This document shows positions 17,248-39,515 of a DNA stretch of 64,000 nt, piece by piece. The DNA lies in NCBI GenBank assembly GCA_030704615.1, contig CM060733.1:50902001-50966000 (forward strand), read 5' to 3'. The notes below the pieces were generated by a model. The model ran no database searches and was not told the origin of the DNA. It worked only from the letters and a program-made list of their open reading frames with translations. The position numbers and the translations under genes are program-made. The stretch is from Takakia lepidozioides (Eukaryota > Plantae > Bryophyta). Position 1 is the first letter of the stretch; every line of letters starts with the position of its first letter.

Positions 17248-17750
17248 TGTCACGACCCTTTGCCTTGAGGGCAGGGGGTCGGGACACAAGAGGGGCTGCC
17301 CCTGTGGTGGGGGCAGTTGCAACAATAGGTACGGGGGCTGAAGCACCATTGAGTGCCTTGGGCACTCAAGGAGGCGGAGGCGCTCACTAGGCGGAGCCCC
17401 GCACACCGGGTTGCGGTGGGAGTGGTTCCACGAGGGGTGGTGGTAGCTTAGTGGGTCTTAGTGGGGGTGGCATAGGACTCACCATGGGGCAGAGACCTTG
17501 TGGTGGGAGTCATGGGGAGTCTTGGGACTCATCACAGTCCAATGGGGCCGTGGTGGGTGGGCGTGGACTCACCGCGACTCATCACCGAGAATCAAGGGTC
17601 TTGTGGAGGAGCAAATGGGGACCGTTATGTCCCGGTGAGCAGCCAAAGCTCCGAGTTGGCCCGGCAGCCAGTTTGGGAGTTAGGCGCGGGCATCAAAGCG
17701 TCAAGTAACTATGACATGAAGGGGAGCTTACCGAAGTGAGGTGCGCGATG
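17248..17750 (+). repeat. 5' LTR of the outer chromovirus
   Basis: Starts TGTCAC and is homologous to 37731-38448, but lacks a ~210-bp segment present in the 3' LTR (~38085-38310). Confidence 0.9.
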
Positions 17751-17805: not shown

Positions 17806-20800
17806 ATGGGGTCGGGCAAGACAAAGCGAAAGCGGAACGGCCTGAAAGATGATGATCCTGGTGAGCCCGGTGGAGGCAACGTGTCACCGAAGCGGCAATT
17901 GGAAGAGGCGATTTATGCTTCTGAAAGCGAGGCCGCTCAAGAATAGGAGGAATCTGGGAAGTCGGAGACCGAGGACTTCCCGGAGGCTCCGGCAGATCAA
18001 CAGATGTCTCCCATGCCAGCAGCCTTTTGGGAAGGGTTGTTGGCGCAGTTTGGCGGGACGTTGAAAGACGTGATGAGAGCGGCTAATGCCACTTCCACTA
18101 AGGCAAAGTTTAAGGTGAAGCCTAAGGAACCCGGCACCTTCGAGGGCGTCCGAAATCGGAAGGCACTCAACACCTAGCTCTTGGAGCTGGAGCAGTACTT
18201 CCGGGCACTACAACAGATTCCAGCTTTACCGTCTGTGACATTTGCCCAGTCGTAGCATATATGTCTACAAAATGCAAGGGGGCAGTCCTAGTTGCCATTT
18301 GTGACCATCAGAAGTCGTATATGCCATCTCGTTCCTCCGCCACGTCAGGATCTGCGGTCAAACACGTTTGACCAGATAGGGGAAGATGGTAGATAAGACT
18401 AGGAGTCATGGCCAAAACTGCAACAGGATGACGTGGGCGTGGGAATGTATGACTGCCAGTATTCACAACTTGCACGTGGCGATTGCCGGTTGCCCAAGGA
18501 GTGTGTACGTGGACGATGCAAACATAAATGGATGAAACATATGTAGGATGTGATTGCAAATGACGACGTGTCAACATATCATTGCTCGCGGGCACTAAGC
18601 CACACCCTAAATGAATGGATGAATGAATGATTAGGATGAATTAGGACGAGTGAACTAGGATGAATTAGGATGAATGTGCTCGAATTTAAGGTTGCAGTGT
18701 TAAGTATGAGGATAATAAGTAGTAAAAATATTTAACTATTGTTTCACTGACCCAACAGATTAACAATAAAACTAATCGACTGCTGGTTAAGGTTAGTGAA
18801 ACAAAACAACTGTATTATCTCAACGAATGATACACAAATGCCTTGCTGGCAACTATCGGATTAATGTATCAAACATAACTTTTGTGCACTGGATGAACGT
18901 ATGAATGAATGATACAACAAACGCCTTGCTGGCAACTATTGGATGAACGTATGAACGAATGATAATGCAAACGCTGAGCTGACAGCAATCGGATGAACTG
19001 ACAGTGAAACTCATTTAAAGAATTATTTTGGATGAATGGATGAAATTAAAATGGCCAAAAGATGGAAAAACAAATGAATGGATGGATGTATTGATGGAAA
19101 ACCCAAAATCCATCCATCTATCGAGGATCTAATTTACATTAGAAAAATTCTATAGATTTTTGGCCAGGTCCAAAAAACTAAAACCCCTTTCCCCTTTCTG
19201 CAGCTATCCCCCCAAAAACTGCATCAAACGAAGCTCATTTGACAAAAATATGACCAACCAGGCTCTTTAAACATAACACCCTTTAAAAAAAATAAACAAA
19301 TACAAGGGAAAATGTATTTTCAATAACTTGTCTTGGCTCCCTGTTCCCTGGTTCCCTAAGAATTCCCTGGACTCATGCCTGGCTCATATCTGAAAAATAA
19401 CGATCTTAGATTCTTAACTCAATCGCTCCACAGTGGAATTACCATGATAAAGGTAATGTCTTATCATCCATCCAGTCATGAGTAGAGGGGACTTAGCGTT
19501 TTTTTGTCTCCCCTGCCATCTGTTTGTTTTCTTTGTGTCGAGTTTGATCGTGAGAGACGACAAACAGGACAGAGCTGTGTTTGCTTTCTTTTAGTGTCGA
19601 GTCTGATCATGAGAGATGTCGAACAAGACGGAGCTATGTTTGTTTTGTTTTAGGGTCGAGTCTGATCATGAGAGACGACGAGCGGAGCTGGTGGGATAGG
19701 GGGCAGACAGGGACTCAAACCCTAGAATCGGGGCATGAAGAAATCCGTCCTGTGCGAAATCATTTCCAACTCGGCATGATGCGAGGCCTCTCGTATGAGC
19801 CAAGCGAGAGGATAGGGCCTTGCGTATGGGGTGGGTGTGCAGGAGGGTATGTCTTGTGCAAATGTGTGAATTTTGCTTTGTTTGCCCTTGTTTTCTCTCA
19901 CTAAAGTCGGAAGCAGGTTTGCTCGTCTTGGTTTCAGTAAAGGAGTTGGGTTGTCATCCGTTCGAAGCGAGGCGTTGGGTTGTCAGCCGTCATTGGCAGC
20001 CGTTCGAAGCAAGGCGAGGATGTATGCGTGATGTGTGCAGAGGCTGGGATAGCTGAAGGAGCAGGGATAGAGTGTGGGTCCAGATTCATCCAATATGGCA
20101 GGATATCAAGCACGATATTATCTGTGATTCCCAGCGGATCAGAGCTACAAGAAACCTGGGCACCTTCTTCTTCGACCTATTTTAGCTTGTGTTGCCCTCT
20201 CTCCAGACTTGGCCCTAAGATGCATATTGAATGCTGTAAGTTAGCTCGATGCTTGTTGATAAGTAGGGTTGGGGGTGTCTCCAGATTACCTATGATTCAT
20301 TGTGGAAGGATAGCTAAAAGAAACCTGCATGGATAGATGGTCAACTGGAAGCCGCAGCAGCAGCGGCACAATTGATAAAATCAAACACTACTAATGAAGG
20401 TAGTGGATTGCTGAATTTCGAGAGATGTCAGTGTATGCATCTTCTGCTCAAGCCTTTGGAAGTCTACATAGACTTTGTAACTTTGTGCATTTTTGTAGCA
20501 GCACCGGATTAGATTATGGAACGGATCTTTGAACATTAAGTCACGTTGTATTTGAATCGATGTTCCAATTTCAAATGTGCTTTCATGTTTCAATGGTGTT
20601 TTCGTGTGCTTTCAATGGTGCTTTCATGTTTCAATGCTGCTAGAGTTAGGCCCATGACTACGGTCATGTACACGACTACCTCCCATCCACAGAGCCTCTG
20701 CCACGTGCCACTTTCACCCCTCGTATTCGCCCATACTCGTGCCACGTGCAGTATCTAGAGTGCGCCATGGAAGTCATATGCTCCAGTCATAACGACCACC

Positions 20801-21848
20801 CCCATCCTGCATAATTTGATTCCACGTGTTATGTCCAGTCTTCTCCACGTGTTGTCCTAGGGTTAATCTGCGGAAGTCATATGCCAGTCGTAAAGACCCT
20901 GTCGCCGTCCCTTTGACGTGACACGTGGCATATCCCTTCCGTTCCACGTGAAGCTGACATGGATTCGTAGTCATTTACTACGGTCTTATCAATGACTATG
21001 ATTAGGCGTCCCCGTTGTCACGTCATCAGTGAGCTCCACGACTGGCAGATACGACTCTATGGCGCTTACGACTCATTTGTCACAACTGACTGGGTTTATC
21101 TGACTAGGCAGTTATGCAGTCATAAAAGGCTGATACGAATGGAAAATAATAGACGTAAAAGCCGGATTTTGTTGTAGTGGGGCGGCCAAGTTGAGTGACG
21201 AGGATCGGGTGGAAGTGGCTCCCACCTATTTGAAGGGCTATGCTCAACAATGGTGGCAAAAACGCCTTCATGACCAAGGTCTAAACCCAGAAACCTTGAG
21301 CTAGAGTGGGTTCAAGGAACTTATGAAAAGACAGTTTGTGCCCCTCAATGCGTCCTGGCTCGCCCGGGACAAGATGAGCAATTTGAAGCAAATGGATGAC
21401 ATTCGGGGATATATTCAGGCTTTCAATGTGCTGTTGCTCGAAGTCGCGGATATGGCAGAACCAGAAATGGTCTTCAATTTTGTGGCAAGACTGGTCCCAT
21501 GGGCCAGGCGGAAGTTGGAGGAGAAGCCACCTAAGACTTTGAACGAGGCAATTGAAAGGGCTGAATGTTTTTCGGATGTCCCTAGGGGCAAAAGACAAGG
21601 CCGCATGGAGCTGAACCACAAGGCGGGAAGGTGACCCCTTCCGACCGGAAAAAAAGTGGGATATGCCACGCGGCGACAATGGCACATAGAAATTGAAGGG
21701 AGGGCCTTCACACGTCAAAGCGGCACTCGGTGCTCCGAAAAGAAAATCAGGTGCGGCGGCTTATGGCGGACAGAAAGCGACCTTCAATGGAGTGTGCTTT
21801 AATTGCGGGGAGCCTGGGCATATGGCCAAGAAGTGCGCGAAACCCTGA
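17806..21848 (+). pseudogene. gag: gag of the outer chromovirus, split by the CACTA insertion (17806-18205 + 21183-21848)
   Basis: KPKEPGTFEG...LEQYF, then after the insert YLKGYAQQWW, FVPLNA..ARDKM..LKQ and the zinc knuckle CFNCGEPGHMAKKC (21795-21836). Contains premature stops. Confidence 0.8.
18206..21179. mobile_element. Non-autonomous CACTA (En/Spm) DNA transposon, copy 1
   Basis: Starts CACTACAACAG and ends TTGTTGTAGTG (~29-bp imperfect TIR), 3-bp TSD GGG, GGATGAA-rich subterminal repeats, no transposase. Homologous to 49818-54055. Confidence 0.92.
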
Positions 21849-21865
21849 CAATTGAATATGACTCG

Positions 21866-21950
21866 TGTCGTGCGCATACATATCGCTACACAACTACATC
21901 GCTGTCCAAACCACACCACACATATATGCACAATAAAGTAGTCTGCCACA
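21866..21950 (-). repeat. Terminal repeat B2 (85 bp) of the inner element
   Basis: Identical to 22317-22401; TG...CA ends. Confidence 0.95.
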
Positions 21951-21960
21951 ATGGGAGGAT

Positions 21961-22314
21961 TGATAAACAAAGCTAAAAAGGACATACACTTCCAACACAA
22001 GAAATATAAAATCCATCGCTATCACTCATTGAAACTGAAGTCGAGCCAGGGGCACCCCAAGCTATGGGGACTCCACCCCACAACAACCTGTATCCCTACA
22101 TAAGCACACTAAAACCTAAACACATGCAGGAGCTCGGTCGCGCAGGCTCAACTCGAGAGAGATGAGCCACGCGACTGCCGCTCTCGTGAAGATAAGATTC
22201 AGGTGTCAAACTAAACTTGACACCTGATTTAACACTTGACCTAAATCCAAGTGTTAAATACAAATAACTAGTTTTATTCTAGTTGTTTTCACACTGTGCT
22301 TATTTAACTTGACA
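21961..22314 (-). repeat. Repeat A2 (354 bp, LTR-like) of the inner element
   Basis: Near-identical to 33001-33357; TG...CA ends. Confidence 0.95.
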
Positions 22315-22316
22315 GC

Positions 22317-22401
22317 TGTCGTGCGCATACATATCGCTACACAACTACATCGCTGTCCAAACCACACCACACATATATGCACAATAAAGTAGTCTGCCAC
22401 A
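22317..22401 (-). repeat. Repeat B1 (85 bp) of the inner element
   Basis: Identical to 21866-21950; joined to A2 through a GC dinucleotide. Confidence 0.95.
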
Positions 22402-22414
22402 ATCGCCCCCCTAG
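22402..22414 (-). promoter_or_regulatory. Polypurine-tract-like plus-strand primer of the inner element
   Basis: The minus strand reads CTAGGGGGGCGAT directly before the TG of B1. Confidence 0.7.
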
Positions 22415-22661
22415 CTGGTGGATAGGTCCCTCTAACTCCAGATAGCTACAAGATGTAATAGCCACAGCCGTACTAAGTCCTCTATCACTGTCCCTATTGT
22501 ACTCAAACTCTATAGACCAAGAGGCCGGGTACAAGAGTAGCCCCATCGTTAGTCGCCGTCTTGCAATCTGTGAACTTGAGCCAGGACCTCGTGTGTTCAA
22601 GGTCTCCTAGTAGCTGGGCCTTGCGTTTCTTGTTAGCCTTCCATGGTTGTATCCACTCCCA

Positions 22662-25600
22662 CTATCCAATGCAATGTGGACATAACCAATCCCCATCCGG
22701 AACCATCTCAAGAGGTGGAGTCAAGCATCCCATATGCCAACCTCTAGAGCATCGATCACACACCAGCATGGTGGCTGCCCCTTTAGCAGACCCACACAAC
22801 ATGCACCTCAAACCTGCAGATACCACTGCCAGGTTTGGGTCAATCCTGCCATCGACATTCGGAAGGTGACATGGCGCACAATTACGCACATGGTCCTTCC
22901 AAGTTATGCCATCCCGACCCTCCAAGACCAAGACGCCTGAGGGCAAGACCTCTCGAACCCTCAAAATAACACGTCCTGCAGTCACATCCAGGGTCGTAGG
23001 AGCAGTCTGCTGCAGATAGACATAGTCACCAGGGTTGAATCTCCGAACCCCAGGACGATAGCCCCCACCACGTATGGTAGCATACCTCAACGTATCACGG
23101 TGTTGTGCAATGGCAAGGTTCTCGAAAGCCATGGGCATGACTCTCTTGAACAACTCTGCACGCTGCTCACATGCACGTGCCCACACGTCCGGATCGTCAA
23201 GGTTAAGAACTGTAGCAGCTTCTCTGCGAATGGATGTAGGCAAATCCGGCTCTCGGCCAAAGAGAAGAAAGTATGGTGAGAAGGAGGCAAGTGATGCTTG
23301 CTTGCTGAACCTGTAGCCCATGGCTAACCAGGGTAACTGAAGGTCCCAATCTCCTAGGTGTCCCTTCTGCAAGCCATACTTGCGCAAACCCCTCTTTACT
23401 GTCTGAACAACTCTCTCTGCCAAGCCATCGGCTTCAGGATGATCCCGAGAAGTGGTGCGGTGGTCTATCAAGGCCTTGTCACACAAAGCCTGAAACTCCC
23501 CCAAGAACTCTCTCCCTTGGTCCGTGAGTACCTCAGCTGGAGCACCGAATCGGCTAAGCACACAATCCAGGAATGCATACGCAGCTCCCTCACTAGCCTT
23601 ATCAGGCAATGGAACCAATTCAATCCACTTGGAGAAGTGCTCCACCATCACCAACACGTACTTGTTGTGGCGCATGGTCAGTGGCAACGGCCCTGCGAAG
23701 TCAAGACTCCACCTGTAGCCCAATCCCATGATCGGAAGAGGGTGCAATTGTGGAGTAGGGGCGTTGAATGAAGCACGCACCCTGTCACACACCATGCACC
23801 TAGCCACAAATTGTTGCACCTCTGTGTGCATACCACGCCACCAATACTGCCCCTGCAGTAGACTATGAGTGCGTCGCACCCCAAAATGCCCCAACTCCTC
23901 ATGGGCATGCCGCACTAACCGTGCCCGCTGTGTTGGGTGAGGCACAATCCTCACTCGACCATCCTCCCACACTCGGAGCAGGTGTGTCCCCTCCCACTTG
24001 AACCTCTTGGCTCGTTGTAGGATCCGATCCCTCTCCTTGGCAGTCATAGTGGCTGCCGTGTCTCCACTGCGGAGGTAGTCCAACACAACTGAATCCTCAT
24101 GTATATCTTTGGCGCCACCCTGCTCATTGCTGGCCTCAGGGTCCTCAGACACTTGATCTACAGTCATCCCTGTTGTAGGTCCAACCTGGCCTTCCGCTGC
24201 CAAGATACACAGAAATGCAGATGCATGCCATCCGGGCACCATCTCCTCGTCCGTCTCACCATGCCACCGAGCTCCAGTGTCATCCTGCTGGCTCGTGCAT
24301 GGATTGCGACTCAACCCATCTGCATTTCGATTGACCAAACCCGGTCGATGCACCACCTGAAAGTCATACTCTTGAAGGATGAGTGCCCACCGTGCAAGCT
24401 TCCCCGTAAGCTTGTCTGACTCCATCAACCACTTGAGTGGTTGGTGATCCGTGACAAGGGTGAAGAGATTGCCGTATAGATAGCACCTGAAGTGTGCCAC
24501 GGCCCACACTGCAGCTAAGCATTCTCCCTCATATGAGCTATACTTAGACTCTGCAGCATTGTTCGAGCGGCTAGCATAAGCCACTACGAACTCTCTTCCC
24601 TCATCATCCACCTGTGTGAGCACCGCTCCAAGCCCCAGCATGCTCCAATCTGTATGCAGCTGAAAAGGACGCCCCCTGATAGGTCGTCTCAAGATGGGCG
24701 CCGAGGTCAACCTCGCCTTGAGCTCTTGAAAAGCTTGTTCTTGCTCATCTTCCCACTGCCACTCCTGGTCCACCTTGGTCAGCTTGGTTAGAGCCTTTGC
24801 AATGGCACTAAATCCCTTAACAAACCGTCTGTAATAGTTTGCTAACCCCATGAAAGCTCGAACTCGGCTCACATCCGTGGGGCGTGGAACCTGTGCAATG
24901 GACTCTACCTTAGTCTGCTGTACCCCCAATCCTCCAGGATATATCATGTGACCCAGATACTCAATCTGGTTGTGGAAAAACTTGCACTTGCCCGGATGTA
25001 ACTTCAATCCGTGCGTCCTCAAGCGCTCAAATACCCCCTGAAGGTGTCTCTCATGCTCCTCCACCGTAGCACTAAAGATGATGATGTCATCTATGTAGCA
25101 CCGAGCAAACTCCACCCCTGCTAGAATCCTGTCCATGACTCTTTGAAACTCAGCGGGAGCGTTTTTAAGCCCAAATGGTAAGAACCGCCACTGGTATAGG
25201 CAATCCTTCCCGTGCTCATTGATCCCCCAGAATGCCGTCTTTTGCTTATCCGCCTCCTTGATCGGCAACTGGTGATATCCGGATCGTAAATCCAACGTGC
25301 TAAAGACCTTGGAATGCCCAATGGCATCAAAGATCTCCTCTGGTGTTGGCATGGCATACCTATCGGACTTGGTCTGACGATTTACAGGCCGGTAATCACC
25401 GCACATACGTCTCTCCGTCCAATTGCCATAGACATCCTTCTTAGCTGGCATCACTGTGGCTGAAGCATACTCTCCACCAGAGAGCTCCACCAAACCTGCC
25501 TCCCAGAGATCTTGAGTCCTCATCTGAATCAAAGACCTCTCCATGTCACTGTATCTATAGGGTCTCCGAAAGATTGGCGTGTCAGTGGCCAACTCAATAC

Positions 25601-25796
25601 GGATCTCTTGACCCTTCAGTGCTCCCAAGTCCTTCAAACTGAAGGCAAAGCAATTCCTGTAAGCCCTCAGGAACCGCCGTATACGTCGTCTCTCTCCTCC
25701 GGTGACAATGGGTCCAATGTCAGGCTCCCAATTGTCCTCCGTAACTGCAACCTTAAGTCCAGTGGGCTTAGAGGTAGAGGACGCGTCCCGTGGTTG
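22662..25796 (-). CDS. pol: Pol: reverse transcriptase - RNase H - DDE integrase - C-terminal PHD finger (open frame starts right after the TAG at 25797-25799)
   Basis: RT motifs LDLRSGYHQ, LPFGLKNAP and YIDD; RNase H LHTDWS, ECLA, TDH; integrase H-H-C-C plus SLDFAG, TDQGREF, GLAER; PHD C4HC3 CMLC..CDRC..WHMGC..WLCPHC. Confidence 0.95.
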   Translation of the reverse strand, partial: QPRDASSTSKPTGLKVAVTEDNWEPDIGPIVTGGERRRIRRFLRAYRNCFAFSLKDLGALKGQEIRIELATDTPIFRRPYRYSDMERSLIQMRTQDLWEAGLVELSGGEYASATVMPAKKDVYGNWTERRMCGDYRPVNRQTKSDRYAMPTPEEIFDAIGHSKVFSTLDLRSGYHQLPIKEADKQKTAFWGINEHGKDCLYQWRFLPFGLKNAPAEFQRVMDRILAGVEFARCYIDDIIIFSATVEEHERHLQGVFERLRTHGLKLHPGKCKFFHNQIEYLGHMIYPGGLGVQQTKVESIAQVPRPTDVSRVRAFMGLANYYRRFVKGFSAIAKALTKLTKVDQEWQWEDEQEQAFQELKARLTSAPILRRPIRGRPFQLHTDWSMLGLGAVLTQVDDEGREFVVAYASRSNNAAESKYSSYEGECLAAVWAVAHFRCYLYGNLFTLVTDHQPLKWLMESDKLTGKLARWALILQEYDFQVVHRPGLVNRNADGLSRNPCTSQQDDTGARWHGETDEEMVPGWHASAFLCILAAEGQVGPTTGMTVDQVSEDPEASNEQGGAKDIHEDSVVLDYLRSGDTAATMTAKERDRILQRAKRFKWEGTHLLRVWEDGRVRIVPHPTQRARLVRHAHEELGHFGVRRTHSLLQGQYWWRGMHTEVQQFVARCMVCDRVRASFNAPTPQLHPLPIMGLGYRWSLDFAGPLPLTMRHNKYVLVMVEHFSKWIELVPLPDKASEGAAYAFLDCVLSRFGAPAEVLTDQGREFLGEFQALCDKALIDHRTTSRDHPEADGLAERVVQTVKRGLRKYGLQKGHLGDWDLQLPWLAMGYRFSKQASLASFSPYFLLFGREPDLPTSIRREAATVLNLDDPDVWARACEQRAELFKRVMPMAFENLAIAQHRDTLRYATIRGGGYRPGVRRFNPGDYVYLQQTAPTTLDVTAGRVILRVREVLPSGVLVLEGRDGITWKDHVRNCAPCHLPNVDGRIDPNLAVVSAGLRCMLCGSAKGAATMLVCDRCSRGWHMGCLTPPLEMVPDGDWLCPHCIG

Positions 25797-27446
25797 CTAT
25801 GCTGCAACCTCTTGAGCAGTACCCCCTTCCTGCTCAGTCAATGACAAGGCCTCATCCTGCCCCATCATCTCATCATTGAGAACCTCCTCATCCCGAGAAG
25901 AATCCCCAACCTCATCCATCACAGCTGCCTTCGCTGCCAACTCCCTCTGAACCTCGAGCACCTCCCACATGTGCCATGGATGTCTACACCTCGTGGTCCT
26001 CACCGGCTCGCCCCCACTCGCTGCCTGTACCGTCTCGGTAGGCAGAGAGACCATCAAGGGAAGTGCACTCCGCACTCTACGTTGCTCAGCCATAGCCAAG
26101 CTGACAATCCAGGTCAAGCAATTGAGATCCATTGCTTGCCCCAACACCTGACGACGTGATGCCTCAGAAAGAGAAGGCACCGCCGTGGTCCCAGTGGAAA
26201 ACCCCATAGCCCGCTCTCGCTCGTCGGCATTAGGCTCCACTAACTGCTGCAACTGAGCATCCCACAGGAGGCCAGGTCCACCATCCCGAAAAGCATGGGA
26301 TCCTGGGAAGCTGAGCAGTGTAGGTAATGCTGCTCGTGGTTGACCCACTCTGTTGACCACTGCCAAAGGCGAACGGTCATCGTGTCTCACACGTTGAGAC
26401 TGCCTTCCTGTGTCCAAAATGCCATCCACGGTGAGGTGTGCTGGCCGCTGCACCCCATCAAATGCACGCTTGAGCAGTGCGGGTGGCATCAAGTTAGTCC
26501 ACCATAGTCGTGGACGATGAGCCCGTGACCCCACTGCAGCTGCATCCAGCAATACTGCTGACCCAAGCCACGACCGGACTTGATGCACACTGGCCATCAC
26601 CCTGGCCCGAGAATCACCCATCAGTGGCACATTCTCCAAGATGTATGCCGGAGATACAGCCTGATGAAGCTGCAAGTGGCGCAAAATCCGCACCATCTCC
26701 CAAAACAGACCCGTCCTCGAGTCTCGCAATCCATTGCCATGCCCGGCTGATGAATGCCCTTGGCAGGGCCAACCTGCCACTACCAGATCAATGGAGCCAA
26801 CCCGCTCCAAATCCTGCGCCCCCAGCAACGAAATGTCTGCTGGCAAGGCCTGCTGATATCCACGAACTGCAGACACCTGCAACAACTCAGGGTGCTGCTG
26901 CACCATCTGAGCAACATGGCGCAGTGAGACGCGTCGTGCAGTCTCATCCCTCTCCACATACAGGTAACGTCGAACTCGTACACCTGCCTGCAGCACTGCA
27001 GCCAATCCAGTGCTGATCCCGCCAAACAAGTCCAGAAGGCATATGCCTTCATCCGGTCGCTGCCACACAAGAGGTGTGGTGTCCAATGGCGACAACTGAG
27101 GTGGCCCTGGTACAATCACCGCACTCTCCTCCTCTCCTGACGGTACAAAAGCTTCTACCCAAGCTTGTTGCACCCGTCCATCAGCAGCGTGCTGCAAATC
27201 CTTGCTCGTACCCCACAACGGAGTGTGAGCAACCATGGCAGGCAACTCCGCCGTACCATGCATGTCATCCTGCTCTGCTGGAGGTGGCACATCCTCTGCA
27301 TAGGCATTGCCTTCCAGCAACTCTCCAGGCCAACTGACTGCAGCTGTGAAGGCGGCTAGTGTTGGCATCTTGCCCCGCTGGCAGCTGCAATACCCCCAAT
27401 GAATGTCACAGGGAGCTGTGCACGGCGACCATCCCCTGACTGCCAT
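25797..27446 (-). CDS. C5 DNA cytosine methyltransferase domain (DNMT3-like, non-permuted) inside the retrotransposon polyprotein region
   Basis: Motif I LDLFGGIS, II YVE, III DI, IV VAGWPCQGHS (catalytic Cys), V GLFWE, VI ILENV, VIII AHRPRLWWTN, IX ERERAMGF and X RRQVLGQAM, in canonical I-X order. Confidence 0.93.
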   Translation of the reverse strand: MAVRGWSPCTAPCDIHWGYCSCQRGKMPTLAAFTAAVSWPGELLEGNAYAEDVPPPAEQDDMHGTAELPAMVAHTPLWGTSKDLQHAADGRVQQAWVEAFVPSGEEESAVIVPGPPQLSPLDTTPLVWQRPDEGICLLDLFGGISTGLAAVLQAGVRVRRYLYVERDETARRVSLRHVAQMVQQHPELLQVSAVRGYQQALPADISLLGAQDLERVGSIDLVVAGWPCQGHSSAGHGNGLRDSRTGLFWEMVRILRHLQLHQAVSPAYILENVPLMGDSRARVMASVHQVRSWLGSAVLLDAAAVGSRAHRPRLWWTNLMPPALLKRAFDGVQRPAHLTVDGILDTGRQSQRVRHDDRSPLAVVNRVGQPRAALPTLLSFPGSHAFRDGGPGLLWDAQLQQLVEPNADERERAMGFSTGTTAVPSLSEASRRQVLGQAMDLNCLTWIVSLAMAEQRRVRSALPLMVSLPTETVQAASGGEPVRTTRCRHPWHMWEVLEVQRELAAKAAVMDEVGDSSRDEEVLNDEMMGQDEALSLTEQEGGTAQEVAA

Positions 27447-28760
27447 CCAGGCCTGTAGGATGCTGACTCCTCCCAGAAATCCAGGGTGAAGCCCATGGGG
27501 TATAACACTGCCCCACCAACGAGGACATCGTAAGAGACCGCGTCTGTCACAATGGCCTTGGCTCGCATCACTGAGCCATCTACAGGATGATCCGGCTGCA
27601 GTCTAATAGCCAACTGATGCCGTGTCATGCCGCGAGCCTGCTCTGATCCTCCCAGAGATGTCTGTATCTGGAAAGGACAAGGCTCCATATCCGCCTCCAT
27701 GAGGCCCAAACCTGCAATAGCAGCTCTGCCCAACATCAGTGGCTGAGCTCCTGAGTCCAACAAGACCCGCAGTGGCCGGTACTTCTTGCTTGCCGGTCCA
27801 CTCAAAGTGAAAATGCCTCCCTGGTTGTCTAACAAGACAACTCCAGGTGTCACCATGGCGCGCTCAATGGCTGGCCTAGCTGGCAGCTCCGTCAATCTGG
27901 CAGCTGCAGCTTGCCAGGGCGCTGCCGTGGCAGTCTTGACCCTCAAATCCGAGGATCCCTCTGCCACTACACCTTCCACTAACTCCGCAGAAGATGAAGT
28001 GACCTCTTGACTCTCGCAGAGTGTTGCTGCTAGTCTGAACACTGCAGCTGGTCTCACTCCCGGCGTCGCAATCATGGTTGCCGAGAACAATGGGGCTTGA
28101 CACACAGAGGTGGCTGCCCCCAATAACACACCGGCCGTACTAGCCTTGGCAGCAGGAGTCAATGCTGCACGTGTAGCTCTCCCCAATGGCATAGTAACCT
28201 CCGCCTCGGTAACAGTCGGGCGAGAACTAGGTGCCATGGATGGCGTTGACACTGTCTCCGCCAAGGTGAATGACTGAGGCAGCCTTGCCTGGCGGCTTGC
28301 CTCCCCACGTTGTGGATCCAACTCCACCTCTGCACCTCGTGGCTCAGGAACTCGTGTTGCTCCTCGAGTCACGGCTGCAGCAGACTCCACCTGCTCTAAT
28401 GGTAGTGCTGCTCCGCACATAAATCCCATGCCTCCCATATCTCCTCCCTCAGGAGCAGGAGGTGGACCATCCCGCCTGGGAGCCGGTACCGCCTGAGCTA
28501 TAGTCATGGCAGCGAGCCTCTGCTCTAGCTGCTGAAGCCGGTTGGCCATGCCTTGATCAACGCCCTGACCTCCACGTCCTTGGCCATGTTGAGCTTGCCC
28601 TTGGCCTGCACCTCGTGCCCGACCACCTCGTCCTCTTTGGGCTGGTCCACCTCGCCCCCGGCCACCATTGTTCCCTTGGAACTGGCCTGGGCGCAACTCA
28701 GGATGCAAGTCATAACACTGGGCATCTCCATGCCCATATTGCCACAATGCCCACACTGCA
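27356..28760 (-). CDS. Gag C-terminal G/R/Q-rich region and aspartic protease of the inner element
   Basis: Second half of a zinc knuckle (YGHGDAQC), RGG-rich stretch, protease active site VLLDSGAQPL and downstream YDVLVG. Confidence 0.8.
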
Positions 28761-29996
28761 ACTGTGCAGGCTGTGCTTGTGCCGGCCTTCTGCCACTCTC
28801 TGGGCAATCTCTCTTGACATGGGGTCCTCCACATGTCCAACATATCACCCCTGGTTGCTGTTGGCCTGCAAAAGATGCCACGGGCCTTGCACCTGAGGCC
28901 CCCTGTAAGCTCCATGGAACTTGGGCTGGGCAACCTTGCCCCCCTGACCACGCTGTTGGGCAGTCCCTTGTGCTTGTGGGCTGACAACTGTGCCCCGTAC
29001 AGGCATGTCCTTGCCAAATCCAATTGTAACAACTCGTTCCTCCACCATGTTGAGCTCAATCCGCTCAGCCAGCAGAAACACATCTGCTAATGTGGGTTGG
29101 GCTGCTTGTAACAGGGTTGCATCTCGCACCCTTCTCTTGAGCTCCTTGTCCAGAATTCCATACCAAAACTGGATTGCCTGAGCTTCAGTAACCCCTTGGG
29201 TCACACTTATCAAGCGCCTCATACGAGTGTACGCCTCTCGCAGGCTCTCACTGGGTTTGCGCTGGAAGTCTTGCAAACTTCGCAGCTTCTCTGTCCGTAC
29301 ACCTTGGTAGTTCCTTCGCAACTCCTGGAAGAACTCCACCACCGGGTTGAATCTAGGCACATGGGTTGTAGCTGTGGCAGGAGGAGTAGTAGCACCTTCT
29401 GAACTGGTACCACCTGCAGAAGTACCAGCACTACCTGCTCCACTACTAGTGCTGGCAGTGGGAGCTATTGGTACTGATGCAGCTACTGGTCGCGTCATGC
29501 CTCGAGTAATGGAGATGTAGTCAGGTGACCAATACATCCTCCACTCCTCAATCTCTGCTTCATGTCCTCGCCTGAACTCGTGGTAATCGTCCATAGGCGG
29601 GCCTTCCAAATGCTGGAACAGTCCCTTCCACGCCATGAATGGGGTGAATAGATGTGGATTGCGCATCTGCTGCAAATCACACCAGCTGTCGAACTCCTGG
29701 ATAAAGTCATCCAACTCGATTGTGCCCACAGCTCCAGAGTACCTACGAGGCCCCTTGGTAGCTCCATACATCTCCTCCATGTCGTCCCACAACAATGGCG
29801 AATGAAAGTGCACACCTGTTGATGAAGCCTCCGAGCCTGTGTCTGACTCTACAGTAATTGAGGGTGGCGGTGAAGGTGGTCTGAACCGAATACCTCTTCT
29901 TGTGAACCCACTCTCACTGTTACTGCCTGTAGCCGTACTCCCCTCAAAACCCTTGGGTAACTCCGTAATGACACTCACAATGTGCACCTCCTCCAC
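28740..29996 (-). CDS. gag: Gag (capsid plus zinc knuckles) of the inner element, broken by 1-nt frameshifts; first in-frame ATG at 29780
   Basis: Retrotrans_gag-like LQDFQRKPSESLREAYTRM...AIQFWYGIL; the knuckles CWTCGGPHVKRDC and CGHCG/xYGHGDAQC continue in successive frames. Confidence 0.8.
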
Positions 29997-30515
29997 GTGA
30001 CACTATAAGGTTCTAGTACTAATCTAATAGTGACACGGGTGGGCACCTGTTGCAGTCTAAGGGTCATATCCCAATGGCTCAGGGCACCTGCACCTGCATC
30101 CACCGCAAGAACTCCTATGGTTGGCTGGTCATCAACCCAGCCTCACCATAGAAGAAACACTGGTGGTCTTGCTGGTCATCACTCCAGCCTCACCACCGAC
30201 AGCATACTCTAGGATTGACCGGTGATCAAATCCGGCCTAATCCCTATGAAAGCAAGCGCCCACACAAAACCAACATGGCGCACAGTCAAGCATGCAGGTG
30301 TTGGGGGGGATCCAAACACAAGAAATCAAAACATCAACACCCCCACACCAAAATCCAGCAGCAACGCTGATCCTGCAGAATATCCCAGCCCAAAACCCCG
30401 GACTGACTGGCCTCCACCAAGAGAGGCTTTGGCAACTACAAGTATAAGGTAATGAAAATAGTACAGAGATGGAGGGGAAGAATAGAAGCCCGACCAAGCA
30501 AGATCTAATCCTGAT

Positions 30516-31265
30516 CTATGCTATCAACTGCCAGACTTCTCTCAAAGTGCCTCGCTCTGCATGATGGTAAGGTGTAGGAGGTATATCTATGTCCAGAAAC
30601 CTGCCACTAACCTTGTCCCAAGCTACAGTAGCTCGCTCTAACCAACCCTCCTCCTCTTTCTGCCAGGTAGAGACAAAGCAATACTCCCCTATCTCCCGCT
30701 CACTGAACACTAAAGAAAACAAAGGTAGGGTCTGATAGTCTCTCAACTCGAAAGCTTTGAGACGGTTGCGGGTGTCCTCATTGCGAATGACTGCATCTCC
30801 TTCACGCACAACAAACATGTCATTGCTGATGAACCCCCGCTCATGGTTGCCCTGTGCAGAGCGTATCCGGCTGCAACCATGTCTGATTGCACAAACTTGT
30901 GTAGCTCCTGCTCCTCTGCTCCAGTACACCACGGCCTTGTGACTGAAAACCTTGGTCCCCGGGGCTGTCTTTGGCTGTGTTCCAAGCCTAGCTTTCACCC
31001 ACTTTGGTATTTCACCTACAGCTGCAGAACTGCTGGCTCCAACAGAGTTCTGACTGTCCAAGGCAATATTGAGGCCCTCAATGCCAACTACAGCAGTCTG
31101 TTGTCTACTGCTAATGCCTGACTCCCAGTATGCAATCAACTCGTCCAACTGTTCTCCACTCAAATCAGTCTGAGTTCCTTGGGAAACATAAATCCTGTCC
31201 CCTTGTGTGCACAGGCTAAGAGAAGAGACCTGCCCTTCAATTACGTCCTCATTTCCCCCAGCCAT
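30516..31265 (-). CDS. Extra 249-aa ORF upstream of gag in the inner element, function unknown
   Basis: Intact ATG-initiated ORF on the element's sense strand within the 3-kb leader; no recognisable motif. Confidence 0.55.
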   Translation of the reverse strand: MAGGNEDVIEGQVSSLSLCTQGDRIYVSQGTQTDLSGEQLDELIAYWESGISSRQQTAVVGIEGLNIALDSQNSVGASSSAAVGEIPKWVKARLGTQPKTAPGTKVFSHKAVVYWSRGAGATQVCAIRHGCSRIRSAQGNHERGFISNDMFVVREGDAVIRNEDTRNRLKAFELRDYQTLPLFSLVFSEREIGEYCFVSTWQKEEEGWLERATVAWDKVSGRFLDIDIPPTPYHHAERGTLREVWQLIA

Positions 31266-32983
31266 GCAAGGAGTACATCCACAGATTTGTCTCTCATATA
31301 GACCAGCACAGGTTCTAGAGACAGGATTGTGGATCTTTTATGGCCCACTCACACTCTAAAAATTCCATAGATTTTTAGCAGAGTCCCAAAAACAGAAACC
31401 AGGTCTAGGTAGGTAGATTTCCCCTTTCTGCAGCTATCCCCCCAAAAACTGAGTCAAACAGAGCCCATATGACAAAGATATGACCAATTAGGCTCTAAAT
31501 CATTCGAATTAGATCAAAAAGGCTTTTTTTTTTTTTTTTTAACACCAAAACGTTCTCGCCATTAAAAACTGTTCCCATGTTATCTACGGGTTGATCTGTC
31601 GGATAAGTGATATCCACACTTGTGCCCTCCGTTCCCTGCAGGTTCCCGATTTTCCATCTGAACAGCCCGTCTCGAGTTCTCCACACATGGGCGGGTCTTG
31701 GGGAATTACGATGAATACAATGGCACGCTGAAGCTCAGCAGCAGGTAGACAATGTGTCCATTAATGTAAAGAGCCTGGCAGATCGACAGTTTGAAACGAT
31801 CAATGCTTCATCTCCTGTTATGCCATTCGCATCAGCCTGCCGTAGATTGTCTGTCAACCAATATCCGAGTTCAATTGTCCAAGCAGAAATCTACTAGAAA
31901 TCTACCAACCGGCTACTGATTCCATAAATACTGGCAACTCCCATTCTGGATCTGTACTCAATGGATCAGTATAGAGTGGCTGCCCTTAGGGCGCGCTTCA
32001 TCCCAACCAGGGTAATCTGCACTGAAGCCGAGATGACACTTGAAGCGGCTGCTTCCACAATGCTCCCTCTTTGGTGCATTCATCGTGCTAATCTAGCACT
32101 GCCCAAACCACGCCACAAACTCTCGTTGGTGCAGGAAATATGGCTGCCGCATTGCAGGTCTCGGGTCAGGCTCTCCATATCCTAGGCGTGCATATTGCTG
32201 CTGATATTGGGGCTGCCTTCAAATTGACTGCCAATAGGCCCGAACCTTAATTGCGCACTTGCTAGAAAATCTAGCCTGACCCCGTCCATCCATTTGCTTG
32301 CTTCCTCGCGATGTGCAGCCAGACAACCTCACATCAACCAGCCCACAACCACTCCTTCATGGTGGCTGGACTATAGTCGCACACCGACTTCCCACCCATT
32401 GCTAGTAACCATTCCACATGAAAGCCAACGACGGCACAATCTGCCTTCATGCCAGCCTGTCCCTCCTCGCTGACCAAGAAAACCAACGATAGCCAGCCAA
32501 CTTCTCAACTCGGCCTTTACTGATTGCACACCCTGATATATGCCATGAACAACTTCACCAAATCGTTTGTCATCAGTACCGATATACCATTGGGACGACG
32601 ACTTGTAGACATGAGCCCATCAACCAGTCCAACACCTTGGCTGCTCACTATGTGCAGGTCTGAAACCATCAGTCTGCTCAGGAATTACCTATAGCATGGT
32701 ATTTTTATCTCTGCAGCTGAAGTCGAAGACCACGGTCCACCCACTCGCGTAACCAGCTGCACCTCCGCTTCTAACCACCAAGACAATGAAGGCTTGCATC
32801 CCAGCCTTGCGAGACAACAATAATGCTGATCGTTTCACCATGCTCGGCTCTCAATCTGCCGCTCAGCCAGTGACCGTTAAAAGGGAGAATACCCATGCAC
32901 TTTTGTGTTACCGCTTTCAACACACACAAAATCCACAAGTGCTAAAAACTAATTAAGCTCACATCTTGCACTCACAGATGCAA

Positions 32984-33001
32984 GCTCAATCTCTCTCGAG
33001 T
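32984..33001 (-). promoter_or_regulatory. Self-complementary primer binding site of the inner element
   Basis: No TGG/tRNA PBS. The sequence is a 13-nt perfect (17-nt with one bulge) reverse complement of 33191-33207 inside repeat A1. Confidence 0.7.
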
Positions 33002-33357
33002 GATAAACAAAGCTAAAAAGGACATACACTTCCAACACAAGAAATATAAAATCCATCGCTATCACTCATTGAAACTGAAGTCGAGCCAGGGGCACCCCAA
33101 GCTATGGGGACTCCACCCCACAACAACCTGTATCCCTACATAAGCACACTAAAACCTAAACACATGCAGGAGCTCGGTCGCGCAGGCTCAACTCGAGAGA
33201 GATGAGCCACGCGACCGCCGCTCTCGTGAAGATAAGGCCATTCAGGTGTCAAACTAAACTTGACACCTGATTTAACACTTGACCTAAATCCAAGTGTTAA
33301 ATACAAATAACTAGTTTTATTCTAGTTGTTTTCACACTGTGCTTATTTAACTTGACA
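33001..33357 (-). repeat. Repeat A1 (357 bp, 5' LTR-like) of the inner element
   Basis: Near-identical to 21961-22314; starts TGTCAAG on the minus strand and is flanked by the TSD. Confidence 0.95.
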
Positions 33358-33447
33358 CTCGGGTGACCACAGAGCTATCCGAAGATTCCATCAGCCGCTT
33401 GGTGGAAACGGTGGTCGCCAAGACTTGTAAGGTATGAAACTACTCTT

Positions 33448-36400
33448 ATGAGTCAACTGTACCAGGAGACTGGCCCCTTGCGTAAAGGGAGTCAGTTAAT
33501 GTTCGTGAGTGGGATAATTTCCGAGACTAACGTGTCGTTGTTGGTGGTTACAGGAGCATTGCACTCCTTCATGACACTGACAACGGCACGGAAGCTGGGG
33601 CTCCCGACAGGTGATGTGGGGGCCTCTATTGAAGTGCGTTCTGCCAAAAAAAAACCACAACTGGCGACGAGGTTGGCATTCGATGTTCCTCTTCAGCTCG
33701 GGGGTTGGGAGGGACGTGAGAACTTCACCATTTGCGAGATCGATGGAGTGGATCTCATTTTGGGGATTACCTTTTTGAGCAAATCCGGAGCGGTCATAGA
33801 TGGCCGCAAGATAATAGTCACGCTACCATGTCGAAATGGTGGTGAAGTTTTACGGATATAAAAAACGCCCAACCGAGTGGGAAGGTGAATGAACCTGCTG
33901 ACAGCAAATGAGTGGGCAGTAGAGGAGCCACACTGGCCCCAGTTTTTGCTTTACGTAAGACAAATGGAAGGAGAAGTTGATAGGGAGCCTAGCCCAGATT
34001 GGATCAAGGGGATCCTGGAGAAATACCAGGATGTGATGTCGGAGGATTTACCAAGCAGCTTGCCACCGCGAAGAGGAGTTGACCACAAGATAGAGGTGAT
34101 ACCGGGATCGGAGCCGCCTGCCAAGGCGCCCTACCGGTTGAGCCACAGAGAGTTGGTCGAACTGAAGGCCCAACTCAAGGATCTAATGTCAAAGGGGTAC
34201 ATCCGGCCGAGTAAGTTACCTTACGGAGCCCCGGTGCTATTCGCAGACAAGAAGGATAGGACGTTGCGGATGTGTGTCGATTACAGGGCTCTGAATAAGG
34301 TGACTATAAACAACCGGTACCCTTTGCCAAAGATCGACGACCTCTTCGATTAATTGGTTGGCAGGAGCAAAGTATGTCAGCCGGATCGATTTACGCTCAG
34401 GTTACCATCAAATCCGAGTGGCGGAAGGAGATTAGGAGAAGACCGCGTGCAGGACAAGATATGGTTCATATGAGTTTTTGGTGATGCCTTTTGGGCTCAC
34501 CAACGCACCCCACGACCTTTAGCACGCTAATGAACAGCCTTTTCCAGGAGTGGTTGGATGACTTTGTGATCGTGTACATCGACGACATCTTGGTGTACTC
34601 AAAAACAAAGGAATAGCACCTGGAGCACCTCAAAAGGGTGTTCCAAAAATTGCGGGAAGGGAAGCTGTATGCCAAAGCTTCAAAGTGCGAATTCGGGGTC
34701 ATAAAAGTGGAGTTCCTAAGTCATGTGATTACACAGGATGGGATCAAAATGGATGACAGGAAGGTGAGGGCGATCTTGGACTGGGAGCCTTCGACTTCGG
34801 TCCTGGGAGTGCGATCCTTCCTAGGACTCGCCTCCTATTACCGAAAGTATGTGAGAAATTTCGCCAAGATCGCGGGGCCGCTGTCAGACCTTCTGTGTAA
34901 GTCCAAGGTATGGGTATGAAACACATTTTGTGGCCAAACTTTTGCCGAGTTGAAGCAGCAGATGGCGGAAGCTCCAGTCCTAAAAATCCCAGAGTTCGAC
35001 CGTCCATTTGAGATTCATACAGATGCGTCGGACTTCGCAATTGGGGGTGTACTCATGCAGGATAGACGTCCAGTGACGTACGAAAGTAAGAAATTGAATG
35101 AAGTAGAGCGACGGTGGCCTACACACAAGAAAGAAATGAAGGTGGTGGTGCATTGCCTTGAGCTTTGGCGCCACCATGTTGGTTCCAACCCGGTGACGGT
35201 TTTCACGGACAATATCACGGTGAAGTATTTTGCCACACAGCCTAAGTTGTCCCCAAAATAACTGAGGTGACAAGATACTTTGGCAGTGTTTAACCTGGAT
35301 ATCCAGTACAAACCGGGACATGACAATGTGGTGGCCGATGCTTTAAGTAGAAAGCAGCAGCTCATGTTGGTGTACAGGGGCGAGACGGCGCTCCAAAGGA
35401 AGATCTGGAAGGCTTACCGGAAGGATGACATGGCGAAGTCCATGATGCAGGACTTGAGGTTGGGGGTTAAATCGCAGTTCCACTTGCACAGTGGACTGCT
35501 CCGGTACAAGCAAAAGCGTCTCCACGTGCCGAAGGGAGGGATTAGAGATAGTCTCTTGAGAGAATGTCATGATGGCCCGCTTGCGGGCCACGGCGGAGCC
35601 AAGCGTACCGCGACACTCTTGAAGAAAAGAGTATTTCTGGCCCAAACTGAGGGAGGAGGCCGAGGAGTATGTCAAGACATGCACCACATGCCAACAAAAC
35701 CGGAGCGAGTACAAAAAGCAAGCGGGGCTGTTACAACCCTTGCCGATTCCAGAGGGGTCTTGGGAAAGTGTCTCGATGGATTTCATGACTGCTATATCGT
35801 TGTCAAAAAAATTCAATGCAATCACGGTGGTGGTGGATAGGTTCAGTAAAATGGGCCATTTTATTCCTACCAAGAAGACGGCAACGGCGCAGGAGACGAG
35901 GCGACTTTACTTCGCCCACGTCTTCAAGCATCATGGACTCCCGAAGGATATTGTTTCGGACCGCAACCCAAAGTTTACAAGTAAATTTTAAAGGGCACTT
36001 TGGAAGAAAATGGGGACGAGACTCAAGATGAGAATCGCCTTCCGACCTACAATGGACGGCCAAACAGAAAGAGTGAATTCCGTGGTGAAGCAGATCTTGC
36101 GAAATTATATGTCGGCAGACCAGTCAAACTGGGTGGAGTACTTGGATGCGGCAAAGTTCTGTTATAATAACACAAAACACTCCGCAACGGGAGTTTCCCC
36201 TTTCGTATTGGTCTATGGAAAAGCACATCTGGTGTCGACAAGTTGGGCCGCCTAGGACGTTGATGAACCGGCAGTAGTAGCGGTACTGGAAAAACGCGAG
36301 CGTTTGTTGGAGCTCGCAAAATACAACATTGCCAAAGCTAGGAAACGGTATGAACGGCAGGCGAATCGGAAGCGGAGGAAAGTTAAGTTTGAGGCAGACA

Positions 36401-37730: not shown

Positions 37731-38448
37731 TGTCGCGGCCCTTTGCCTTTAGGGCAAGGGGTCCGGACACAGAGGGGCTGCCCCTGTGGTGGGGGTAGAG
37801 GCAACAATAGGTACGGGGGCTGAAGCACCATTGAGTGCCCAAGGCACTCAAGGAGGCGGAGGCGTTCACTAGGTGGAGCCCCGCACACCGGGTTGCGGTG
37901 GGGGTGGTTCCACGAGGGGTGGTGATAGTTCAGTGGGTCTTAGTGGGGGTGGCATAGGACTCGCCATGGGGCAGAGACCTTGTGGTGGGAGTCGTGGGGA
38001 GTCTTGGGACTCATCACGGTCCAATGGGGCCGTGGTGGGTGGGCCAAGACTCACCGCGACTCATCACCGGGAATCAAGGGTCTTCGTGGTGGTTCGCCAT
38101 AAAATGACTGGGTTGTTTGTGAAACCCCCGCAGACAGTCACAGAAACATATATAGGGAGTAGTAACCCCGAGAACGGTGCAAGCTCGTTGGTGACCAAAA
38201 ATTAGTGAGTAAGTATGTGAGCCGGAAAGCGACCAAGGTGTGGGGAGCTGTTCTAGACTGCCAACAACCAAAGGGAATTTCCACTAGGCCCAAAGTGAGC
38301 GAGGGTCGTGTGAAGCAAATGGGGACTGTTATGTCATGAGCAACCGAAGCTCCATGTTGGCCCGGCGGCCAGTTTGGGAGTTAGGTGCGCGCATCAAAGC
38401 GAGTAATTATGACATGAAGAGGAGCTTACCGAAGTGAGGTGCGCGACT
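37731..38448 (+). repeat. 3' LTR of the outer chromovirus
   Basis: Homologous to 17248-17750 and followed by TSD TGGAA. Confidence 0.9.
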
Positions 38449-38954: not shown

Positions 38955-39515
38955 CTAACAGGCGAGTAAGAATATTCGCCCTCCTCGAAATACTTTTTGC
39001 ATGCTTATCGAAAAAGTAAAAAGTGGCAAGACAACGTCTCCGTCGGTCCCACGCGCAAGTCTCGTGACCTTATAGACCCTTGTGTTTGAGAGGACTGAAC
39101 ACTCAATCCATTGACTTTCAGCAGAGCCAAGCCAAAAGTGCTTGACATTTGCACTTGCACAAGTATTCATACAATGCACTCGATCCTTCTTCCCAGATCT
39201 GGGAGAAAGAAATTCCACCACTACTAGTGGAGGAGAATTGCTAGCATCAAAGTATATGGAGGTATTTGGGATCATCTTCGGATATGGAGGTACTCTCGAT
39301 GCCGCGATATCATAGCAAAAAGAGCTTCCCTCGTAGAACATTGAGGCGTCTACGGAAAAAGCGTATTCTAGCTCTAGTCCACTTTGGTCGGCCCCACCTA
39401 CTAACTCAGCTGAAAGATATGTCACCGCGAAGTTGAGTTTGCCGGCAGCGATACCAAACCAATGGAAAGCCCCTCTACACACAAATGGTGTCGGGCGGAC
39501 ACAATGGCCAACCAA
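38955..39515 (-). pseudogene. Uma2/DUF820-like PD-(D/E)XK nuclease-fold ORF, probably degenerate
   Basis: PPLVVVEFLSPRSGKKDRVHCMNTCASANVKHFWLGSAESQWIEC matches the Uma2 pattern PxLVVEVLSPSxxxxDRxxKxxxYAxAGVxEYW; no introns and no clean ATG start. Confidence 0.6.

Follow-up and report, generated by a model that had tools for sequence, protein, structure and literature searches.

What a cytosine methyltransferase could do inside a plant retrotransposon, and how it would be expressed when a stop codon separates it from the reverse transcriptase (RT), is the question raised by a 64,000-nucleotide stretch of the Takakia lepidozioides genome (GCA_030704615.1, contig CM060733.1, positions 50,902,001 to 50,966,000), referred to here as the window. 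The window contains an 11,492-bp Ty3/gypsy element on the minus strand, ending in TGTCA...CACGACA, with a DNMT3-like C5-cytosine methyltransferase domain (DNMT) between protease and RT. A preliminary description, made from the sequence alone, had placed the domain there within a target-site duplication, which is CTCG on both sides, and had taken the host to be a land plant, in agreement with the host genes of the window, which, among named proteins, match those of liverworts and mosses best. Here it is proposed that the element is of the KnitGypsy-Dnmt3 type, that its DNMT is made at the level of Gag and methylates the element's own cDNA, that RT and integrase are produced by readthrough of the stop, and that the RNA primes itself and the cDNA integrates from circles. 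The proposal as a whole is given a probability of about 0.55.

The domain lies in an open reading frame (ORF) of 601 codons (27602-25797, minus strand), which matches PF00145 (E=5e-13) and has LFGG, VE, DLVVAGWPCQG, ENV, AHRPRLWWTN, ERERAMGF and LGQAM intact and in canonical order, as first read. The domain is present in the interval 25797..27446 to which it had been assigned, the domain proper occupying about 27050-26082. Its description as DNMT3-like and not DRM-like agrees with sequence, profile and fold comparisons. Among solved structures, sequence comparison ranks DNMT3A first (5e-11), followed by DRM (3e-6, N-terminal part only) and M.HhaI (2e-4), and a profile of eight sequences widens the gap (DNMT3A 1e-17, DRM 3e-7, HaeIII 2e-6). 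A predicted model of moderate confidence (predicted local distance difference test, pLDDT, 64; predicted template-modelling score 0.71) has DNMT3A as its top fold match, with a template-modelling score of ~0.6. DRM, with its permuted motif order, was rejected; the window motifs run in order from I to X, and DRM matches are limited to query residues 5-130. A viral or phage origin is not supported, with two weak viral loci (27-35%), phage C5-methyltransferases matching the window domain at ~26% (24-31% identical among the best 20 of 378 rows), and Atlas phage-cluster matches at the family level only. The domain is therefore called DNMT3-like by its similarity ranks and by the 2018 description of related elements (PMC5890265; here and below, statements citing papers by PMC number refer to the accessible portions of those papers) rather than by a tree with host DNMT3 genes. 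In an alignment of 177 near-full domains drawn from 211 proteins, all 170 ungapped rows have the catalytic Cys, and the ENV Glu occurs in 173/177 and each RxR Arg in 171/177. Judged by these residues, the DNMT is probably an active methyltransferase. As a separate variation, Glu replaces Pro before the catalytic Cys in 71 of the 177 aligned domains.

The DNMT ORF is in frame with a 1044-codon ORF encoding RT, RNase H, integrase and a PHD finger, with a single TAG (25799-25797) between them. The preliminary description had the two in frame apart from one stop; the single TAG is confirmed, but it is a feature of the family, at a conserved place and in a conserved context, and not damage. The evidence comes from the window and the 80 best of 166 metagenome loci, among which 62 junctions hold both the DNMT and the start of RT and 19 do not. 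Run back from RT, the search for the first stop gave a TAG or TAA with CARYYN directly 3' of it in 54 of these 62 junctions, and the offsets match. The exact CARYYA follows in five: the window and L006 (CAACCA), L029 and L031 (CAGTTA), and L044 (CAATCA). These five encode QP, QL or QS, the amino acids varying while the nucleotide pattern is kept across lineages. As a control, 831 in-frame damage stops were followed by CARYYN in 11 cases and by CARYYA in one. In L029, a frame of 1369 codons with CCHC and PCQ motifs is followed by TAG CAG TTA and then by 1047 in-frame pol codons. The linker has 79 to 113 codons and is in frame in undamaged copies, and positions 25797-25799 are unchanged among the host-copy rows listed, with 605 further rows beyond these. 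For Marchantia, Calypogeia and Klebsormidium, the stop is known from protein ends alone. No strong RNA structure was found 3' of the stop in five sequences (z-scores -1.84 to 0.03).

The CARYYA context after UAG is essential for readthrough in tobacco mosaic virus (TMV), gives 6-32% readthrough in plant reporters, and works with UAA too (PMC2754532). The window stop has this type I arrangement, with UAG, CARYYA and a frame open on both sides; the context is identical to that of TMV, whereas here it lies inside a retrotransposon, after Gag-protease-DNMT, with readthrough being predicted. From the place and context of the stop, programmed readthrough is considered highly likely. With the stop placed after the DNMT, readthrough would put the DNMT at the level of Gag, several-fold above RT and integrase, and the conserved stop would in this way set the enzyme dosage. 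A signal of the UAG-CARYYA type also occurs before the envelope-like gene of SIRE1.

The ends of the element had been described as near-identical terminal repeats. Their identity was confirmed (X 98.6%, with one substitution and one 3-base indel between X1 and X2; Y 87/87), and the insertion is therefore young; however, they are not an ordinary pair of long terminal repeats (LTRs), being split as X1...Y1-X2-Y2. The complete 5' to 3' order is X1, a 3-kb leader, gag, CCHC, protease, DNMT, TAG, RT-RNase H-integrase-PHD, Y1, GC, X2, 8 bp and Y2 (Table 1). The GAG-PR-RT-RH-INT domain order, the TG...CA ends and the 4-bp target duplication are those of Ty3/gypsy, and the best PDB match of RT plus RNase H is Ty3 Gag-Pol (E=7e-95); two full identical LTRs at the element ends are absent, the repeats being split. 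The element is thus Gypsy by its proteins and not a canonical LTR element by its ends.

The position following X1 does not start with the TGG of a tRNA-type primer site, and no tRNA gene was found within the window. None of 300 random stretches had a self-complement as long as its 12 nt, and with an energy of -28.7 the duplex outdoes all 200 controls; L049 has a 16-nt complement of different sequence in the same place. In most related loci, as in the window, a purine tract lies 5' of Y1. The primer site and the purine tract bracket an ordinary LTR, Y-GC-X, and the element ends at the palindrome inside it, which suggests that integrase inserts circles cut inside the LTR. At the Y1-X2 junction of moss loci, the spacer is GC in 4/8 and another 2-base spacer in 4/8, with the CA-NN-TG spacing kept, and the junction motif is also kept in the divergent L044 and L029. 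A 4-bp duplication is present in 7/7 loci with both ends, two of the seven being one insertion. The X2-Y2 joint varies, from the 8-bp filler in the window to ~20 bp in L068 and a one-base overlap in four loci. Among 23 loci with a downstream Y, seven have Y-X-Y, 12 a single Y, two are cut by the contig end, and two are rearranged. Circles are usually dead ends for LTR elements, and, from the layout of these ends, integration by an integrase cutting inside the LTR is given an even chance. L028 (12554-13450) and L032 (4923-5819) contain a rearranged copy whose end consists of part of X, primer-site sequence and Y; in L028 the 4-bp duplication still matches, and the copy may record an aberrant circle or strand transfer.

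The domain is not confined to the window copy, nor is it evolving neutrally between lineages, two of the outcomes that the preliminary description had named as counting against it. Of 7,991 candidates in a search for longer proteins, 65 proved homologous, the named ones being 18 from Marchantia, one from Calypogeia, two from Sphagnum, two from Closterium, one from Monoraphidium and one Chrzof1 model (presumably Chromochloris); no vascular-plant name is among the 65 homologs, which is weak evidence of absence. A profile search gave 394 clusters at E<=1e-30, and 20 of these, when looked up, included one from Klebsormidium nitens (GAQ93235.1), three from Closterium and one from Scenedesmus. The window DNMT and GAQ93235.1 are 39% identical over 322 columns (E=1e-62). 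GAQ93235.1 consists of CCHC, protease and DNMT and stops 12 residues past the domain; some unnamed relatives continue past the DNMT as a single ORF. In sequencing runs with contig depth, which are labelled as one organism, were chosen with this stretch and may include the source of the window, 97,686 contigs fall on the element, with summed depth (which is no copy number) of 0.74-1.22 million in the DNMT bins versus 1.02-1.19 million in the RT bins. The family is high-copy and abundant in liverworts and mosses. The ratio of nonsynonymous to synonymous substitution (dN/dS) is 0.13 for the DNMT (four deep pairs) and 0.11 for the integrase (three pairs), with 20 DNMT pairs saturated and the DNMT pattern being much as in RT and integrase. 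The DNMT is under purifying selection between lineages.

In a tree of 55 DNMT rows, the window, Calypogeia, Marchantia and moss-like loci form a 100/100 clade, nested in a 97/94 clade of 17 rows in which every ORF ends after the DNMT; the bootstrap was not fully settled. The window and Klebsormidium DNMTs are on the same side of the tree relative to four phage enzymes, with the order among element groups unsettled. Two architectures were found among the 211 proteins: the DNMT precedes RT in 61 and lies between RNase H and integrase in 95 (named chlorophytes included), the other 55 being unassigned. Both separate in the DNMT trees and in the RT tree, the latter having only two distant outgroups and a long-branch warning. 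The large chlorophyte-type clade (P0257, P0268, P0218, P0061 and others) has RT-RH-DNMT-IN-PHD in one ORF.

The element type was described already in 2018 as KnitGypsy-Dnmt3 of Klebsormidium nitens, with DIRS-like repeats, Gypsy domains and Ka/Ks <0.2 (PMC5890265), so the novelty suggested in the preliminary description is partial: no land-plant report was found in the searched literature, but the type itself was known. The window element shares with KnitGypsy-Dnmt3 the Gypsy domains, the unpermuted intronless Dnmt3-like domain and, from the text of that paper apart from its figure, the DIRS-type repeat layout; together with homology to Klebsormidium and purifying selection, these make its identity as a KnitGypsy-Dnmt3-type element very likely. 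We infer that GAQ93235.1 is a KnitGypsy-Dnmt3 product. Gypsy-Dnmt3 is, in the view of the 2018 paper, a K. nitens-lineage acquisition whose DNMT belongs to the Pol ORF (PMC5890265). The window element differs in being in a land plant and in a high-copy family, and the accessible description of KnitGypsy-Dnmt3 is without a readthrough stop, self-priming site, palindromic junction or PHD finger. What is new here is the conserved stop with its CARYYA context and the end structure of LTR, primer site and palindrome. In the literature searched, outside which subscription papers and Repbase lie, no report was found of a land-plant case, of readthrough or of an end mechanism for such elements; the accessible portions of PMC11244446, PMC11982613 and PMC10952607 have nothing further on them, and that of PMC12344493 mentions only 'streptophytes and dinoflagellates'.

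Other known systems share single features with the window element. The chlorophyte DNMT-Gypsy elements (Scenedesmus KAF8056149.1, Monoraphidium, Chrzof1), of which no literature description was found, have a related DNMT, RT, integrase and PHD finger, but their single long ORF has the DNMT after RNase H and before integrase, and they form their own clade in the DNMT and RT trees. SymbioDIRS-Dnmt3 of dinoflagellates also carries a Dnmt3-like enzyme, with de novo CG methylation in yeast; it is, however, a DIRS element with a tyrosine recombinase and an independent acquisition (PMC5890265). Split repeats of the A1-B1-A2-B2 kind, as defined in PMC4157794, are shared with PAT, Ngaro and TOC, which use a tyrosine recombinase, whereas the window element has a DDE integrase, TG...CA ends and 4-bp duplications. 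Membership in DIRS/PAT/Ngaro was rejected, as the element frames have no tyrosine-recombinase Pfam match and rve is present, and Troyka (CG...CG ends, 3-bp duplication, animal hosts; PMC12440569) was rejected by the window ends. Tf1/Sushi and Tcn1 similarly have no tRNA site and a primer site complementary to the 5' repeat (PMC6317226), but with ordinary LTRs and chromodomains in place of the PHD finger, DNMT and offset ends.

In the proposed cycle, the bulk of the DNMT would arise within a Gag-protease-DNMT protein, RT and integrase being made only when ribosomes read through UAG-CARYYA, a minority of times, and each RT or integrase in a particle would be accompanied by many DNMT molecules. 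The RNA would self-prime as in Tf1 and give a normal linear cDNA with Y-GC-X as its LTR; the cDNA ends would then be joined and integrase would open the circle at GACA/GC/TGTC, two-LTR circles giving X...Y-X-Y and one-LTR circles X...Y. The DNMT would put 5-methylcytosine on the cDNA before or at insertion. The preliminary description had suggested the cDNA or the insertion site as its target; that it acts on the element's own cDNA is, from the arrangement of the polyprotein, a proposition with equal odds for and against. The CpG observed/expected ratio is 0.51 in the element and 0.29-0.83 in its flanks, and CpG and CHG ratios are uninformative on methylation. The PHD finger has among its best solved matches KDM5B and KDM5A PHD1, PHF12, PHF21A and ATXR5. 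Several of these read unmethylated H3K4, like the ADD domain of animal DNMT3, and the PHD finger would steer integration by the state of the histone H3 tail; such targeting is a guess. A broader version is offered as tentative and somewhat doubtful: a Gypsy lineage spread across green plants would have shifted the point at which its DDE integrase cuts to a mid-LTR palindrome and would integrate circular cDNA, and its bryophyte members would use TMV-type readthrough to load a de novo methyltransferase at capsid stoichiometry, new copies being methylated in advance.

Several observations weigh against the proposal. The search runs to the first stop, and therefore some stop was guaranteed and only its place and context are informative; the 62 junction rows are related and represent about four lineages rather than independent cases. 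CAACCC, one base off the consensus, accounts for 47/62 junctions, all in one moss family, and the CARYYN context is missing in 8/62. The self-priming duplex is beyond all 60 controls in only 6/19 moss 5' ends. The mirror product X-Y-X...Y, expected from a symmetric circle model, was found in 0/19 5' ends, and recombination between Y1 and Y2 could also yield the single-Y copies (X...Y). For the enzyme, the target-recognition region is poorly modelled (residues 207-266, pLDDT <50), the Klebsormidium DNMT gave no methylation in yeast, a result that its authors deem inconclusive (PMC5890265), close pairs have a DNMT dN/dS of 0.41 (three pairs) and 0.88 (one pair), and the DNMT frame is open in only 8/81 stretches. 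No RNA run is among the runs recorded as containing the window stretch.

Four other explanations were weighed against the proposal. The stop could be real and pol reached by splicing, as in Ogre, which has an intron between GAG-PROT and RT (PMC6317226), or by re-initiation after the stop. The TAG could indeed supply the AG of a 3' splice site; in the moss family it is preceded by a T-rich run, and an ATG lies six bases 3' of it. Such an ATG is, however, absent from the window, L006, L029, L031 and L044, which also show little pyrimidine tract, the conserved part sits 3' of the stop and fits CARYYA despite the change in amino acids, and the linker stays in frame in undamaged copies in spite of its variable length. 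This route is considered improbable beside readthrough. A retained DNMT could also have another role, such as nucleic-acid binding or coating in the particle, methylation of RNA:DNA hybrids, or action on host DNA in trans. Abundance at the level of Gag fits a stoichiometric role, the algal enzyme was inactive on yeast DNA, and its authors list several alternative roles (PMC5890265), while the near-invariant catalytic Cys, Glu and Arg favour catalysis and tethering in a particle-forming polyprotein would favour a target in cis. Such roles are regarded as somewhat unlikely compared with methylation of the element's own cDNA.

For the ends, a PAT/Ngaro-like scheme would have the RNA run from X1 into Y2, the Y1-X2 junction template both ends, and integrase use the product ending in TGTCA/CACGACA. 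Its layout is that of PAT/Ngaro (PMC4157794), and X...Y-X-Y, without the mirror order, is the only order observed. However, the element has no tyrosine recombinase, the purine tract before Y1 and the primer site after X1 sit where an ordinary LTR Y-GC-X needs them, and the differences in the X2-Y2 joint among copies are unexpected for a templated joint; the scheme is on the unlikely side, at a level similar to that of the other roles for the DNMT. Finally, a single decaying copy could have captured a host DNMT3, with the stop arising by a chance CAG-to-TAG mutation, as the window copy is frameshifted and C-to-T changes are common in the family. Homologs are nevertheless present in liverworts, mosses and algae, and therefore no one-off capture took place; in addition, elements of liverworts, mosses and algae carry the domain at one position and without introns, the DNMT and RT trees split alike, and the stop is common to many copies and lineages. 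This last explanation is almost certainly wrong, and the proposal of a readthrough-dosed, circle-integrating KnitGypsy-Dnmt3-type element is preferred.

The abundance of the family in liverworts and mosses, with chlorophyte relatives having the domain elsewhere, contrasts with a review in which land plants such as tracheophytes are said to lack transposon-encoded methylases (PMC6338049) and with the view in PMC5890265 of a K. nitens acquisition. Marchantia polymorpha, a genetic model for which methylation mutants exist, has numerous copies, which makes the function of retrotransposon DNMTs testable. The end structure accounts for DIRS-like repeats on an integrase element and predicts integration from circles. 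Such ends would probably escape ordinary LTR finders, and such ORFs could inflate DNMT3 gene counts in bryophyte annotations.

Table 1. Features of the DNMT-bearing element in positions of the window.
Feature	Positions	Strand	Remarks
Whole element	21866..33357	-	Nested in another Gypsy element
Target-site duplication, 5'-side copy	33358..33361		CTCG
Target-site duplication, 3'-side copy	21862..21865		CTCG
Repeat X1	33001..33357	-	357 bp; A1 in split-repeat terms
Mid-X1 stretch	33192..33203	-	Complementary to the site just after X1; predicted RNA 5' end and self-primer
Primer-binding-site position	32989..33000	-	Directly after X1; 12-nt perfect complement to 33203-33192
Leader frame	30516..31337	-	273 codons
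gag and CCHC knuckle region	28732..29780	-	ATG at 29780; frame changes near 28900 and 28735
Aspartic protease	27400..27820	-	LLDSGA; Asp_protease_2 detected on homologs
DNMT3-like C5-cytosine methyltransferase domain	26082..27050	-	Unpermuted; catalytic Cys codon 26765-26763
Conserved stop, TAG CAA CCA	25791..25799	-	CARYYA context; predicted readthrough site
Open pol frame	22662..25796	-	1044 codons; RT, RNase H, integrase (H2C2 and rve), C-terminal PHD finger
Polypurine-like tract	22404..22415	-	GCTAGGGGGGCG; directly 5' of Y1, kept in related loci
Repeat Y1	22317..22403	-	87 bp; B1
Palindromic Y1-X2 junction	22311..22320		GACA-GC-TGTC; halves are the element's two ends; predicted integrase cut site
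Repeat X2	21961..22314	-	354 bp; A2
Filler at X2-Y2 joint	21953..21960	-	8 bp; joint varies among related copies, like an end-joining scar
Repeat Y2	21866..21952	-	87 bp; B2; 3' end of element

Alignment to a relative places frame changes near 28900, 28735 and 27390 in gag and protease, the last of which splits the protease from the DNMT frame in the window copy. With these three upstream changes, the window copy, as assembled, is therefore unable to make the polyprotein; the changes may be decay or assembly errors. The leader frame has no Pfam family and is unmatched in the 80 related loci, and its contig depth is high in the host runs. Another leader part (31550-32730), bounded by a T-run at 31523-31539, has a summed contig depth several hundred-fold below the rest of the element and is possibly a copy-specific insertion.

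The Gypsy element that received the insertion (21281-21865 and 33358-36000, plus strand) has a gag with CCHC knuckle to the left of the insertion, protease and RT to its right, and RNase H and integrase pieces, and is broken by stops and frame changes. Repeats of 300 bp at 17289-17588 and 37771-38070 (94%) may be its LTRs.

Host gene regions of the window (611-2221, 10377-11315, 13202-13546 and 62206-62607) include a DUF616 glycosyltransferase-like gene and a RING C3HC4 ligase, as well as what we take, by eye, to be an expansin-like exon and a BRX-domain exon. The DUF616 exon matches Calypogeia, Sphagnum, Marchantia (66%), Ceratodon (65%) and seed plants (<=63%), with no named alga among the best 120 of 151 matches. 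A Lines-like gene (44900-47580, plus strand; PF14694, PF14695), of a family better known from animals, has nine matches, the named ones being Sphagnum and Ceratodon at 35-40%. By these gene matches the host is most probably a bryophyte without close kinship to the genera named. Several blocks of 100-215 bp in 18205-21179 and 49817-54055 recur ~31.6-32.9 kb apart with 84-96% identity and are a dispersed repeat or small duplication, and PPR-like fragments are present at 53139-53615. A 200-codon frame at 38955-39557 (minus strand) has a weak match, below the Pfam cut-off, to Uma2 (putative restriction endonuclease). Additionally, sequences similar to non-autonomous DNA transposons occur at 48938-49817 and 54056-57109, in the form of 53-bp tandem units and of nested inverted repeats with 222-nt arms (93%).

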